Positions 1-8,696 are shown, counted from the stretch's first letter. The stretch is 8,696 nt of DNA from a virus (IMGVR_UViG_2751185959_000005), one strand, 5' to 3'. Program-made: numbers and translations. Notes: generated from the sequence alone by a model not told the origin.

Positions 1-164
1 AAAATGAGAGCCTGAGCCACTATCGTTTTAATAACCGGGATGAAGCCATCTCAGTAATACGGGAATACATTGAGATTTTCTACAATCGTCAGCGTCGTCA
101 CTCTCGTCTGGGGAATATCTCCCCGGCAGCCTTCAGGGAAAAATATCATCAGATGGCTGCTTAA
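1..164 (+). CDS. IS3-family transposase OrfB, C-terminal fragment (5' partial)
   Basis: In-frame translation from position 3: NESLSHYRFNNRDEAISVIREYIEIFYNRQRRHSRLGNISPAAFREKYHQMAA, stop TAA at 162-164. The FYNxxRxHSxLG...SP motif is typical of the C-terminus of IS3-family DDE transposases. Confidence 0.8.
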   Translation, partial: NESLSHYRFNNRDEAISVIREYIEIFYNRQRRHSRLGNISPAAFREKYHQMAA

Positions 165-207
165 AAAAAGAACAAATGGTAGTGTCCGCTATTGCCAGTA
201 CACCTCA
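1..207 (+). mobile_element. IS3-family insertion sequence, right end only (element continues beyond window start)
   Basis: Positions 1-208 are the exact reverse complement of 8489-8696 (checked base by base). Contains the transposase OrfB C-terminal coding end and terminates ...CACCTCA at 207 (IS3-family ends are typically TG...CA). Specific IS name not determined. Confidence 0.85.
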
Positions 208-566
208 GGGTGTTTGTCCACACCAAACCTGCCTACCGAAGCGACGGAACAAAAACAGCAGCGGTAAGGAAGATGAGAACCGACAGCAACAAGGCATGGA
301 AGGGAGCGTTAAAGCGGGCAGGCATTAGCAACTTCCGCTTCCATGACCTGAGGCATACCTGGGCAAGCTGGCTGGTTCAGTCCGGTGTCTCTCTTCTTGC
401 GCTTAAAGAGATGGGAGGATGGGAAACTCTCGAAATGGTTCAAAGATACGCCCACCTTTCAGCCGGGCATCTTACCGAGCACGCGAGCAAAATCGATGCG
501 ATTATAAGTCGCAATGGCACAAATACGGCACAAGAGGAGAACGTAGTTTACTTAAATGCGAGGTAA
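208..566 (+). pseudogene. int: Phage tyrosine integrase, 3' remnant truncated at the IS junction
   Basis: Translation ...[47 protein letters not shown]... carries the HxxR box and the catalytic Tyr (RYAH) of lambda-type integrases. Only about 119 codons remain; the N-terminal two-thirds is missing. The ORF-track start at 192 lies inside the IS end and is not a real start. Confidence 0.8.
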
Positions 567-580
567 CTTATTGATTTAAA

Positions 581-626
581 TGGTGCCGATAATAGGAGTC
601 GAACCTACGACCTTCGCATTACGAAT
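581..626 (-). other. att core: 46-nt copy of the 3' end of a tRNA-Thr(CGU) gene (anticodon loop through CCA), no 5' half present
   Basis: Minus-strand read ATTCGTAATGCGAAGGTCGTAGGTTCGACTCCTATTATCGGCACCA shows anticodon loop TTCGTAA, T-arm GTAGG/TTCGACT/CCTAT, acceptor 3' strand and CCA. No acceptor 5' strand or D-arm adjoins it. Matches my recollection of E. coli thrW 3' end; not verified by search. Confidence 0.7.
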
Positions 627-827
627 TATAAGAATCCGCTTGTAATTCAAAGGATTATCCCATCAACACTGCGCTCACACGTCCCACCACATCAAAACAT
701 GTAAAGCCTTGCAAGCCATTGTGAGGCCTTATGTGTCTCAGTTTTGTCTCATCAGACATAGCAAGTATCGATCAATTGAGACTTGGATGATAGACTTCAT
801 GCCTTTCAGAGCTCATTGATTAAATAA

Positions 828-1190
828 ATGTTAAAGTTATTTGTAAAGTACACATCTATAGGTGTGCTGAACACACTTATACACTGGGTGGTTTTTGGTG
901 TATGTATCTATGCCGCACATACCAGTCAGGCTCTGGCAAACTTCACAGGTTTCGTAGTGGCTGTGAGCTTTAGCTTCTTCGCGAATGCAAGATTCACATT
1001 CAAAGCATTGACTACAGCGATGCGCTACATGTTATACGTGGGATTTATGGGAATATTGAGTGTGATTGTTGGTTGGGCAGCTGATAAATGCTCACTTCCT
1101 CCAATAGTCACTCTTATCACCTTCTCCGCCATCAGTCTGGTGTGCGGTTTCGTCTATTCAAAGTTCATTGTCTTTAGGGATGCGAAATGA
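828..1190 (+). CDS. gtrA: GtrA, bactoprenol-linked glucose flippase (O-antigen glucosylation)
   Basis: 120-aa small hydrophobic protein ([31 protein letters not shown]...KFIVFRDAK) with GtrA-family size and sequence character. Its stop overlaps the next start (ATGA at 1187-1190). Confidence 0.9.
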
Positions 1191-2116
1191 AAATATCTCT
1201 TGTCGTTCCTGTCTTCAATGAAGAAGAAGCGATACCTGTTTTCTATAAAACGGTACGTGAATTCCAAGAGTTGAAGCCATATGAAGTAGAAATTGTATTC
1301 ATAAATGACGGAAGTAAAGATGCCACAGAGTCAATTATTAACGCGCTGGCTGTTTCAGACCCGCTAGTTGTTCCGCTGTCATTTACACGCAACTTTGGTA
1401 AAGAACCAGCCTTATTTGCAGGGTTAGACCATGCAAGCGGCGATGCTGTAATTCCTATTGATGTCGACCTGCAAGACCCAATTGAGGTTATCCCTCATCT
1501 TATTGAAAAGTGGCAGGCAGGTGCTGACATGGTGCTTGCTAAACGTTCAGACCGCTCAACTGATGGACGACTGAAACGTAAGACAGCTGAGTGGTTCTAT
1601 AAATTACACAACAAAATAAGCACCCCAAAGATCGAGGAAAATGTCGGAGATTTTCGACTCATGTCTCGTGAGGTTGTGGAGAACATTAAACTGTTGCCTG
1701 AGCGCAATCTTTTCATGAAAGGCATACTGAGCTGGGTGGGTGGTCCGACGGATGTCGTTGAATATGTACGCGCAGAGCGTGTTGCTGGCATCTCAAAATT
1801 TAATGGCTGGAAATTATGGAATCTGGCACTGGAAGGTATCACAAGTTTTTCAACCTTTCCTCTTCGCGTATGGACTTATATAGGCTTGTTTGTTGCAAGC
1901 ATTTCATTTTTATATGGTGCATGGATGATTATAGACACCCTTGTCTTTGGTAACCCAGTACGCGGGTATCCCTCCCTGCTTGTATCAATACTTTTCTTGG
2001 GTGGAGTGCAACTGATCGGGATTGGTGTTCTCGGAGAATATATAGGTAGAATCTATATTGAAGTAAAAAATAGACCCAAATACATCATAAAAAAATCTCA
2101 TCGAGGTAACCCATGA
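1187..2116 (+). CDS. gtrB: GtrB, bactoprenol glucosyltransferase (GT2 family, UDP-glucose to undecaprenyl phosphate)
   Basis: 309 aa with GT2 N-terminal motifs ([26 protein letters not shown]) and C-terminal transmembrane helices, typical of GtrB / dolichol-phosphate glucosyltransferase-like enzymes. ATGA overlaps at both ends. Confidence 0.9.
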
Positions 2117-6904: not shown

Positions 6905-7039
6905 GGTGGTGACGCTGATAAACTGGCTATAAACAACCTGGAAGGTGATGAGCTATCGCAATATAATTTATTGGCGAATTATTTGAAGCCAATTGATAAC
7001 ACCAGTGCTCAAAAGACTCCCCCCGGTAACCATAAGTAG
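6905..7039 (+). other. Degenerate inverted paralog of the tail fiber crossover region (possible remnant of a second variable tail-fiber cassette)
   Basis: Open frame without start codon translating GGDADKLAINNLEGDELSQYNLLANYLKPIDNTSAQKTPPG. Compare tail fiber [11 protein letters not shown]...AAQKFPSG: two collinear patches of similarity, on the opposite strand to the tail fiber gene. By-eye alignment only. Confidence 0.3.
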
Positions 7040-7423
7040 CTAATATCTAGTACAGTTTCGATATCTATTATCGTTACTGCGTCGATATAGTCTAAATAGC
7101 TGCACCTAATTCTGCCACACTTGTCGTTTACAGATGGGTAATGTGTTGCGTATGGGCAACAAAACTCAAGCCAGATATAACACAACCTAGCTGAGAACGC
7201 CTTCCTGATGCTTCGCCCAGCAAGGGCTGAGCGAAAGTGGAGCACTTTTCTGCGCAGCTATTTAGGACAGTATTGAGTCATATTGTTTATGTATGAGTTA
7301 AGTTTCGTAATATCAATTAAATAAAATAAGTTGAAATCATTGTAGAAGTGAGCATTATACCCAGGCTACCTGAACCTACTGAAAAACGAGTATTATTCCA
7401 ACAATTATCCTAGATTAACAAGT

Positions 7424-7825
7424 CTATTTATTTGGATGCATAGGCCACTCGGGTTTTACTACATTAACACGCATAAGCAGCACCCGATATTTTTTCCATG
7501 CCAGTAACAGTTTCGTTTCATCATCTGTTGCCATACCTAAATCAACCGCATCCTGAAGCGGAGCTATTACATTCGTTGCCTCTGCTATCAGTGCAGATTT
7601 CTTTTCATCATTTATTAAGGCTAATTGTTCTGGTGTTGGAGAAGGACGGTCAACAATGACAGGATGACCGTTCTCACCACAGGTAATCATTTTTGTTACA
7701 CTCTGTGCATTAATCAGTGTTTTCCACTCTGATTCCGAGATTTCCACTGCATCATCAGGAATATTGGTGCCGTGAAATTCAGTCGAATAAAATCCGTTTG
7801 TCGATGCAGAATAAAAATATGACAT
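7424..7825 (-). CDS. tfa: Tail fiber assembly protein (Tfa chaperone)
   Basis: Start chosen at the Met of MSYFYSASTNGFY (7825), 4 nt after the tail fiber stop, rather than the longer overlapping ORF to 7921. C-terminus ...EATNVIAPLQDAVDLGMATDDETKLLLAWKKYRVLLMRVNVVKPEWPMHPNK has the Tfa hallmark (ATDEE, W..YRV.L.RV, PEWP). Confidence 0.85.
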   Translation of the reverse strand: MSYFYSASTNGFYSTEFHGTNIPDDAVEISESEWKTLINAQSVTKMITCGENGHPVIVDRPSPTPEQLALINDEKKSALIAEATNVIAPLQDAVDLGMATDDETKLLLAWKKYRVLLMRVNVVKPEWPMHPNK

Positions 7826-7829
7826 TTTG

Positions 7830-8480
7830 TTAATATCCCATTGCAATGTAATACGCATCAGCAGATGAACCGTATCCTGAACCGGGCGACACAGTAATAT
7901 TAAATCCAGTGTTCTGGACACTTGTCGCCGATACAGTCGGCTGCCCAGCCGCGCCAGTAACGTTCAATGTAACTACGACAGCAATTACTCTTGAGAACGT
8001 CATCGGGAACCTCATCCCGTATGTTGAAGATACATTCGGGGCACCATTCAACTGACCGCACTGTAAAATTAATCCAGACGGAAATTTTTGCGCAGCAGCC
8101 GTTACGGTATTAATTGACGCGAACAGGCTCATATCAGGTATCTGATTCGCCCCTGTACCTACATTCCTTTTAGCTGCTTCTCCCAAACCAAGGTTTTCGA
8201 GAGCCGTTTTCACCGTGCCATCCGATTTGATATCGCCAAACGGATTCTTGCGGCTTAACAGCAGCGCGCGAAGTGCGGTAAGCAACTGATCGTGCCGCCC
8301 CTTCTCCAGGCTGGCACCGGATGCCTCCACCACGCTGCAAAGCTCCTCCTGCAACATGTCAAAGTAGTCATCATCCAGATCGGTGGCAGGCGTGCCAGTC
8401 TGGGGGTTACCACGGGTAAAACCGTTCTTACCCGCGCCGAACTTATCCTTCTTCGCGGTTTTCGTGTCTATACGATGCAT
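7830..8480 (-). CDS. Phage tail fiber protein, probably 5'-truncated by the IS insertion (short conserved N-terminal part plus variable C-terminal part)
   Basis: 216 aa. GC-rich N-terminal third ([50 protein letters not shown]) resembles conserved tail-fiber N-terminal modules; AT-richer C-terminal part is Gly/Ser/Thr-rich. The start codon sits 9 bp from the IS end at 8490 with an in-frame stop just upstream inside the IS. Followed by tfa. Confidence 0.65.
8178..8203 (-). other. Candidate Hin/Gin/Cin/Pin-type (Din-family) inversion crossover site inside the tail fiber gene
   Basis: Plus strand TTCTCCCAAACCAAGGTTTTCGAGAG: two imperfect 12-bp inverted half-sites around a central AA, with core AAACC-NN-GGTTT. 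About 20 of 26 matches to hixL as I recall it (TTCTTGAAAACCAAGGTTTTTGATAA). Encodes LENLGLGE and coincides with the GC-rich to AT-rich shift in the gene. Confidence 0.4.
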
Positions 8481-8489
8481 GGATTACTC

Positions 8490-8696
8490 TGAGGTGTACT
8501 GGCAATAGCGGACACTACCATTTGTTCTTTTTTTAAGCAGCCATCTGATGATATTTTTCCCTGAAGGCTGCCGGGGAGATATTCCCCAGACGAGAGTGAC
8601 GACGCTGACGATTGTAGAAAATCTCAATGTATTCCCGTATTACTGAGATGGCTTCATCCCGGTTATTAAAACGATAGTGGCTCAGGCTCTCATTTT
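8490..8696 (-). mobile_element. IS3-family insertion sequence, right end only, inverted copy (element continues beyond window end)
   Basis: Exact reverse complement of 1-207. IS end ...TGAGGTG begins at 8490, immediately upstream of the tail fiber start. Confidence 0.85.
8533..8696 (-). CDS. IS3-family transposase OrfB, C-terminal fragment (5' partial), inverted copy
   Basis: Mirror image of the fragment at 1-164; identical sequence on the minus strand. Confidence 0.8.
   Translation of the reverse strand, partial: NESLSHYRFNNRDEAISVIREYIEIFYNRQRRHSRLGNISPAAFREKYHQMAA

Follow-up and report, generated by a model that had tools for sequence, protein, structure and literature searches.

The window, the whole 8,696-nucleotide stretch of viral DNA analysed here (IMGVR_UViG_2751185959_000005), is very probably the SHI-O serotype-conversion island of Shigella flexneri serotype 2a, a remnant of prophage SfII that still occupies its original integration site at thrW. 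Its O-antigen genes stand between two inverted copies of the insertion sequence (IS) IS600, which are breakpoints of deletion and rearrangement and not the arms of a transposon that delivered the genes. The island itself is already known as the published SHI-O and is not a new mobile element. Our additions are anatomical and correct an earlier note on this DNA on three points: the tail-fibre gene is intact; the integrase stub at the left edge, together with its IS600 copy, is a scar of the host backbone older than SfII; and the right IS600 copy takes the place of a 32-kb IS600-associated deletion in SfII. This base-level anatomy (hybrid attachment (att) site, xis-to-baseplate deletion, age of the left junction) is not spelled out in the SHI-O papers that we read.

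From position 563 to 8489 the window aligns to infectious phage SfII (NC_021857 / KC736978, 41,475 bp) in one collinear match that runs from the attP core through the tail fibre at 99.6% identity, the differences being 25 mismatches and two 2-bp insertions or deletions (indels). The order is att core, gtrA, gtrB, gtrII, ISSfl9, oacD, tail-fibre assembly gene and tail fibre. All six phage genes (gtrA, gtrB, gtrII, the acyltransferase gene and the two tail-fibre genes) are full length, free of internal stops and 0–3 amino acids (aa) away from their SfII counterparts. The earlier description of a phage-derived, serotype-converting module with intact gtrA, gtrB, type-specific gtr and acyltransferase genes is thus borne out. 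Three hallmarks of an SfII-type SHI-O locus are present, namely an att core corresponding to the 3′ half of thrW and adjoining gtrA, a gtrA-gtrB-gtrII operon with a type-II-specific glucosyltransferase, and an acyltransferase gene downstream of gtrII that is named oacD after the literature. Phage SfII has its own int gene beside attP (72% identical to the int fragment in the window) and continues past the tail fibre into its baseplate, tail, head, lysis and regulatory genes, whereas the window has IS600 at both of these points.

The right IS600 copy marks a large deletion in SfII. Between its end and the tail-fibre ATG (8480, minus strand) there are 9 nt, which include GAG TAA (8489–8484, minus strand), the last sense codon and the stop codon of the baseplate-wedge gene SfII_22, which forms the inner edge of the deletion. 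Homology to SfII stops at window position 8489, equivalent to L001:10931, SfII_22 being located at L001:10926–11510 (L numbers denote the loci read). The outer side was examined in a sample of 13 chromosomes with 11 distinct contexts, the first 10 of which provide the counts for junctions and for left IS600 copies. In all 10, the outer end of the right IS600 abuts one and the same point inside the xis gene of SfII (GGGATCTT/TGAGG). Beyond the truncated xis (xis′) lie an intact int gene of 387 aa, 382 of which are identical in SfII int, and then the thrW core. With SfII_22 at the inner junction and SfII xis/int at the outer one, SfII DNA is present on both sides of the right IS600. The two junction points are ~32.3 kb apart on the 41,475-bp SfII map, and 9.2 kb has been kept; the lost stretch, from mid-xis to the last codon of SfII_22, comprises all regulatory, replication, lysis, head and tail genes. 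All three junctions are unchanged across the 10 contexts.

It had been claimed that the right IS truncates the tail-fibre gene; this gene encodes 216 aa and is identical to SfII_23, and SfII_22 is cut instead. Excision is compromised by the truncated xis and the loss of 32 kb, not by the cut int on the left, and tail building fails through the deletion of everything upstream of the tail fibre, the gene itself being whole. The proposal of a phage unable to excise or to build a tail therefore stands as far as the defect is concerned, but the causes given for it, a cut int and a cut tail-fibre gene, are not supported.

At the left boundary, the plus strand carries a truncated int gene (int′, 208–566) that retains the C-terminal 118 codons and the stop codon (210–566) of a non-SfII tyrosine integrase (Pfam Phage_integrase, profile positions 101–170 of 172) and lacks its 5′ two-thirds. 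The inner flank of the IS here is GGG, with no matching duplication on the other side. The int′ remnant is 98–99% identical to the int genes of mEpX2, HK75, HK542, mEp213 and SfX, other phages that integrate at thrW, and 72% identical to those of SfII, SfV, SfI and SfIV. The statement that the left IS cuts the phage integrase is hence right in that a C-terminal fragment alone remains, but the gene belongs to another prophage. The att core that follows (581–626, minus strand) comprises 46 nt, equals the 3′ half of the tRNA-Thr gene thrW and matches L002:2160–2205; ARAGORN detected no complete tRNA in the window, which contains the thrW core alone. Homology of the mEpX2/HK75 type ends at 626, SfII homology begins at 563, and from there on the attP arm of SfII is identical. 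Homology thus switches within the core, which makes it a hybrid att: the int′ prophage contributed the left arm and SfII the right one.

Window positions 140–626, which span the IS600–int′ junction, the stub and the thrW core, are base-identical in three loci with other serotype-converting clusters nearby, gtrI in L015:6949–7435 and L017:9–495, and gtrIV in L018:9–495; the sequences diverge only past the core. Since the same IS600–int′ junction stands beside gtrI and gtrIV, the left IS600 and the stub are older than SfII and part of the S. flexneri backbone, a fixed scar that is the downstream neighbour of each incoming thrW phage. Conserved host genes between proA and yaiC, as mapped in serotype Y strain 036 and in its lysogens, include IS600, IS629 and a putative integrase (Figure 2 in PMC3306764). 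Among GTDB species representatives, a scan for the IS600–int′ junction returned only two chromosomes, both with gtrII, and so did not reach past genomes of the S. flexneri type. A chimeric open reading frame (ORF) of 124 aa (192–566) starts with TTG in the IS600 end, runs into the int′ stub and is called as a gene in L009 and L015–L021; its product is almost certainly non-functional, yet the frame is a useful exact-match marker of the junction.

One might instead regard int′, att core and gtrA as the attP of a recombinant SfII-like phage with an SfX/HK75-type integrase, so that the left IS600 would cut the cargo phage's own int. Mosaic phages exchange int modules, SfX itself has this int type, and in relatives in Escherichia coli the same gtr arm is accompanied by other int alleles, homology beginning at 512 or at 576 depending on the genome. 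However, an intact SfII-type int and a truncated SfII xis are found across the right IS600, where the native int is expected, and a base-identical IS600–int′ junction next to three different arms (gtrII, gtrI and gtrIV) fits a fixed host scar and not three recombinant phages that share one IS insertion. We therefore consider the recombinant phage very unlikely and attribute the hybrid att to integration of SfII beside an older prophage remnant.

Both ends of the window belong to IS600, a member of the IS3 family. Positions 1–208 and 8489–8696 are exact reverse complements, so that the perfect inverted repeat described in the earlier note is confirmed at exactly 208 nt; the repeat finder gave 211 nt, one mismatch included. 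The repeat is made up of the final 207 bp of IS600 and one base (208/8489) that flanks the element and is common to both sides by chance, which means that the IS ends at 207 and resumes at 8490. These limits follow from a full copy of the element in S. flexneri 2457T (L010:6832–8095), which comprises 1264 bp with TG...CA ends (TGAGGTAGCC...CACCTCA) and is 99.8–99.9% identical over its full length to the annotated 'IS3-like element IS600'. Size and ends are those of IS600 (~1264 bp, imperfect terminal inverted repeats, 5′-TG...CA-3′), as are the two consecutive transposase frames, orfA with a helix-turn-helix and orfB with a DDE/rve domain; in the loci these frames are called either separately, with 100 aa (HTH_Tnp_1) and 272 aa (rve), or fused into one of 385 aa. 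The window contains just 207 bp of either copy. In the left one (1–207, plus strand) the C-terminus of orfB (3–161; rve_2, E=3e-10) is followed by TAA at 162–164 and by the terminal inverted repeat ending ...CACCTCA at 207, and the second, inverted copy (8490–8696, minus strand) is its reverse complement. As the transposase C-terminus reads inward, the right ends of both copies point at the cargo, in agreement with the earlier note, for which the element can now be named within its family. The 3-bp target duplication that surrounds a simple IS600 insertion is found at neither window copy; its absence means that these copies are not simple insertions and leaves their identity as IS600 unaffected.

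Two inverted IS600 copies at both ends of the cargo, 99–100% identical and flanking adaptive genes, could suggest a composite transposon that moved the 8.3-kb O-antigen module as one unit to its present site. IS600 is moreover active in this lineage, as a fresh insertion nearby, in the thrW-proximal int of L002, displays a clean 3-bp duplication (CTT/CTT) and served as a positive control. No direct repeat, however, brackets the pair, which reads GTC...AAG in L002 and CTT...AAG in 2457T. Taken singly, the left copy is flanked by GTC (L002) or CTT (2457T) outside and GGG inside, and the right copy by CTT outside and GAG inside. The target duplications that the earlier note proposed to look for in the outer flanks are thus absent from either copy and from the pair. 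(In L002 the inverted repeat seems to run on for 8 nt past IS600, but this is a chance similarity of 5/8 positions.) The right outer flank consists of the cargo phage's own xis/int in 10/10 contexts. The two arms did not both arrive with the cargo, for the left junction predates SfII and is shared with gtrI and gtrIV strains. In 5/10 contexts the left copy is truncated, interrupted or chimeric: an inverted IS600 cuts it to its last ~395 bp in L003 and L005, an IS66-family element splits it in L007 and L008, and in L004 its 5′ end is chimeric. Nor does the unit occupy more than one genomic location or replicon, since it lies in the proA-thrW / adrA region in all 13 chromosomes, and a search of plasmids gave no record covering at least 80% of it, just IS fragments and gtrAB relatives. 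What had been called a composite-transposon-like unit bears a resemblance only, and we regard transposition of the module to its present site as extremely improbable.

As the opposite outcome, the earlier note had named a pair of independent simple IS insertions, each with its own duplication, into a prophage that is otherwise intact, with the missing 5′ parts of int and tail fibre directly beyond each IS. Simple insertion does occur at the locus, as documented by the CTT duplication in L002; neither window copy has such a duplication, though, and beyond the right IS we find xis/int and not the rest of the baseplate gene. The outer side of the left IS shows IS629 and other IS debris, xis′ or unrelated sequence, and never, in the contexts read, the 5′ part of int′. 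For the genomes read, we give this explanation next to no credence either. The observations fit a third case, neither composite transposon nor pair of simple insertions, in which IS600-associated deletions took place at thrW. In some strains only, the IS debris left of the module includes a gene for a group II intron reverse transcriptase (RVT_1 + GIIM, ~502 aa; L003 2550–4058, L004 4799–6307, L007 1110–2633 and L008 1110–2618).

On the basis of these junctions we propose a history of the island, the order of events and the deletion mechanism being what we infer from them. An older prophage at thrW with an integrase of the SfX/HK75/CP4-6 type would have decayed, leaving the 3′ third of its int abutting IS600. 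SfII would have integrated at the regenerated thrW, its gtrA arm becoming joined to the old int remnant via the 46-nt core to create the hybrid att. Some 32.3 kb of SfII, from mid-xis to the last baseplate-wedge codon, would then have been lost, with one IS600 in its place, by recombination between two IS600 copies or by IS-mediated adjacent deletion. The accessory end (gtrA-gtrB-gtrII, ISSfl9, oacD, tail-fibre chaperone and tail fibre) survives between the IS600 copies. The idea of domestication holds in that a defective phage has retained O-antigen genes that work in 2457T (PMC8973906), but not for the route by which it was thought to have come about.

Four points weigh against this history. 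The outer flanks were read in other S. flexneri genomes and not in the source strain of the window, and a 2-bp indel in the spacer between oacD and the tail-fibre assembly gene (tfa) sets the window apart from these loci, so that its flanks could differ too. In principle, the hybrid att could stem from a recombinant phage instead of tandem integration. Finally, in 2457T the cargo is flanked by a 2613-bp, 99% identical inverted duplication of core, SfII int, xis′ and IS600 (L010 5487–8099 and 16375–18987), which the simple history does not predict and which demands extra steps of inversion and gene conversion. Strain 2457T is the sole context of ten in which the xis′–IS600 junction occurs twice. 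The duplication could be due to inversion plus gene conversion or be an assembly artefact of this 2003 genome. The tail-fibre end is linked to xis′/int, the native deletion junction, in 9/10 contexts, and in 2457T xis′/int is present on both flanks.

In the first ten contexts the locus is heavily rearranged by IS elements, and the orientation of the module also differs between strains. In L002-type strains it is oriented as proA and lies inside a block of ~13 kb that is bracketed by two inverted IS600 copies and also contains SfII int and the oacB element, whereas in 2457T it is opposite to proA, and relative to the oacB element, too, its orientation is the reverse of that in L002-type strains. 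A head-to-tail stack of prophages could have given rise to these arrangements in two ways, either through inversions with IS600 copies as the recombining sites or through inversions between the two SfII-type int copies with subsequent gene conversion. The IS600 copies at the locus are patchy mosaics of single-nucleotide polymorphisms (SNPs), as seen in a comparison of positions 6832–8095 with 16380–17643 in L002, L006 and L009 (alignment A6). The markers of the left copy (columns 153, 168–169, 657, 768–792, 816 and 980) are all present in L002 and partly erased in L009 and L006, the column 980 marker occurs in the right copy of L009, and the left copy of 2457T fits neither marker class. Such mosaics indicate gene conversion or sequence exchange among IS600 copies and do not locate the crossover points. 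The earlier note had termed the repeats a substrate for homologous inversion; orientation relative to proA indeed differs in 2457T, and the window IS copies are possible crossover points; the mobility that it asked about finds no support in the strain comparison. Inversion of the exact 8.3-kb segment between the window IS600 copies is plausible, and in 2457T exchange could proceed via the 2.6-kb core-int-xis′-IS600 repeats as well. That the serotype-conversion cassette is recombinationally invertible through its inverted IS600 copies, with orientation isomers segregating among 2a lineages, is a tentative idea that we think rather unlikely; if true, flipping of the cassette could affect its stability or read-through expression of gtr and oacD.

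The closest known system is SHI-O of S. flexneri 2a strains 301 and 2457T, in which a cryptic SfII lies between proA/thrW and adrA (yaiC) and which shares the locus as well as gtrA, gtrB, gtrII and oacD with the window. Both inner junctions of the window are contained in 2457T, and we find no material difference from SHI-O, only a few SNPs and the 2-bp spacer indel relative to the loci read. In strains 301 and 2457T, SHI-O is described as keeping little of SfII besides the antigen genes (PMC1550401). The genes gtrIIBA and oacD were assigned to an SfII prophage between proA and adrA; deletion of these genes alters the serotype of 2457T, as does deletion of oacB, which resides on a neighbouring transposon-like element (PMC8973906). 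According to these deletions (PMC8973906), both functions of the locus work in the remnant. Of these, gtrABII adds glucose onto rhamnose I of the O-antigen (type II antigen), and oacD gives rise to O-acetylated N-acetylglucosamine (GlcNAc), the group 10 antigen. A parallel for the hybrid att is the tandem lysogeny at thrW of SfI beside SfX in serotype 1d (PMC3306764), where the int arm of one phage is likewise joined via the thrW core to the gtrA arm of another; unlike there, the resident partner in the window is a remnant of 118 int codons left by IS600. The compound transposons Tn10 and Tn5 have near-identical inverted IS copies flanking adaptive genes as well, but the window unit has neither a target duplication nor a second location, and one of its arms is older than the cargo and often degenerate.

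Further prophage-derived arrangements were seen at related loci. Beyond the right IS600, L004 (17764–21461) continues from SfII int into an att core and a second gtrA-gtrB-gtrC cluster, whose 421-aa gtrC is cut by the end of the locus; this is a second hybrid att in a three-layer stack of prophage remnants, and the strain is presumably of the 2b type. L004 is also 1 bp shorter, and its oacD is called at 270 aa only, both suggestive of a frameshift variant. In L002 (16380–21461) and L010 (3235–8095), IS600 copies in direct repeat enclose oacB (390 aa), an ORF of 207 aa, SfII int and an att core, consistent with the published 'transposon-like' oacB element upstream of adrA. A further thrW core connects oacB with SfII int, which suggests that oacB likewise came in on a phage integrating at thrW. 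The E. coli strains A21 (L012, from an opossum), FDAARGOS_144 and SCU-124 carry gtrABII-ISSfl9-oacD-tfa-tail-fibre at 98.7% identity and continue into baseplate and tape-measure genes, so that a complete SfII-like prophage apparently exists outside Shigella; in A21 the SfII-like segment adjoins the vat island at thrW.

On the plus strand the cargo carries three gtr genes: gtrA (828–1190), for a bactoprenol-glucose flippase of 120 aa (Pfam GtrA_DPMS_TM; 2 aa from SfII_29); gtrB (1187–2116), for a bactoprenol glucosyltransferase of 309 aa (Glycos_transf_2; 1 aa from SfII_28); and gtrII (2113–3573), for the serotype-II-specific glucosyltransferase of 486 aa (Glucos_trans_II; 3 aa from SfII_27), the exact sequence of which is named 'glucosyltransferase GtrII [Shigella flexneri]' in the sources. 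The gene oacD (5604–6653, plus strand) encodes an O-acetyltransferase of the acyltransferase-3 family with 349 aa (Acyl_transf_3) and corresponds to SfII_25 with 2 aa differences; OacD is credited with 6-O-acetylation of O-antigen GlcNAc (Sun et al. 2014, as cited in PMC8952252 and PMC8973906). The minus strand carries the intact tail-fibre assembly (chaperone) gene (7424–7858, 144 aa; Caudo_TAP), identical to SfII_24, and the complete short tail-fibre gene (7830–8480; Gp53-like_C), which equals SfII_23 in length and sequence. The 770-bp spacer between oacD and tfa was considered as the site of a remnant gene or an invertible segment; its sequence reveals none, and the SfII annotation lists none there. 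An Rfam scan of the window yielded no family at gathering score. Four cargo proteins were looked up (GtrII, OacD, ISSfl9 transposase and tail fibre), and for each of them the contigs with the exact sequence, mostly from S. flexneri, number ~1000 or more, the upper limit of the count.

Between gtrII and oacD the cargo contains a third IS that the earlier note had not recorded, ISSfl9 of the IS4 family (~3912–5256 with approximate outer limits, minus strand), so named in SfII and E. coli annotations. Its transposase gene spans 3963–5153 on the minus strand (DDE_Tnp_1, NCBIfam IS4), and inverted repeats are located at 3926–3956 and 5217–5247. Because ISSfl9 occupies the same position in infectious phage SfII and in the E. 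coli relatives, it is not a sign of decay; evidently the SfII phage tolerates and transmits it. An E. coli prophage with the same insertion has a frameshifted ISSfl9 transposase, and relatives of the element, 96–97% identical, are found on plasmids of E. coli and E. fergusonii beside traT.

Among Shigella serotypes, S. flexneri 2a is the most prevalent, and vaccines are directed mainly at it and few others; since the locus sets its type II O-antigen and group 10 epitope, the stability of the locus matters for serotyping and vaccine coverage. The IS600 bracket is no reason to expect transposon-like movement of the module, for which there is no evidence of movement as a unit. Many draft contigs of ~8.28 kb represent the cargo between the two IS600 repeats, and since these repeats bound the cargo, isolated ~8.28-kb gtrII contigs are frequent in draft assemblies.

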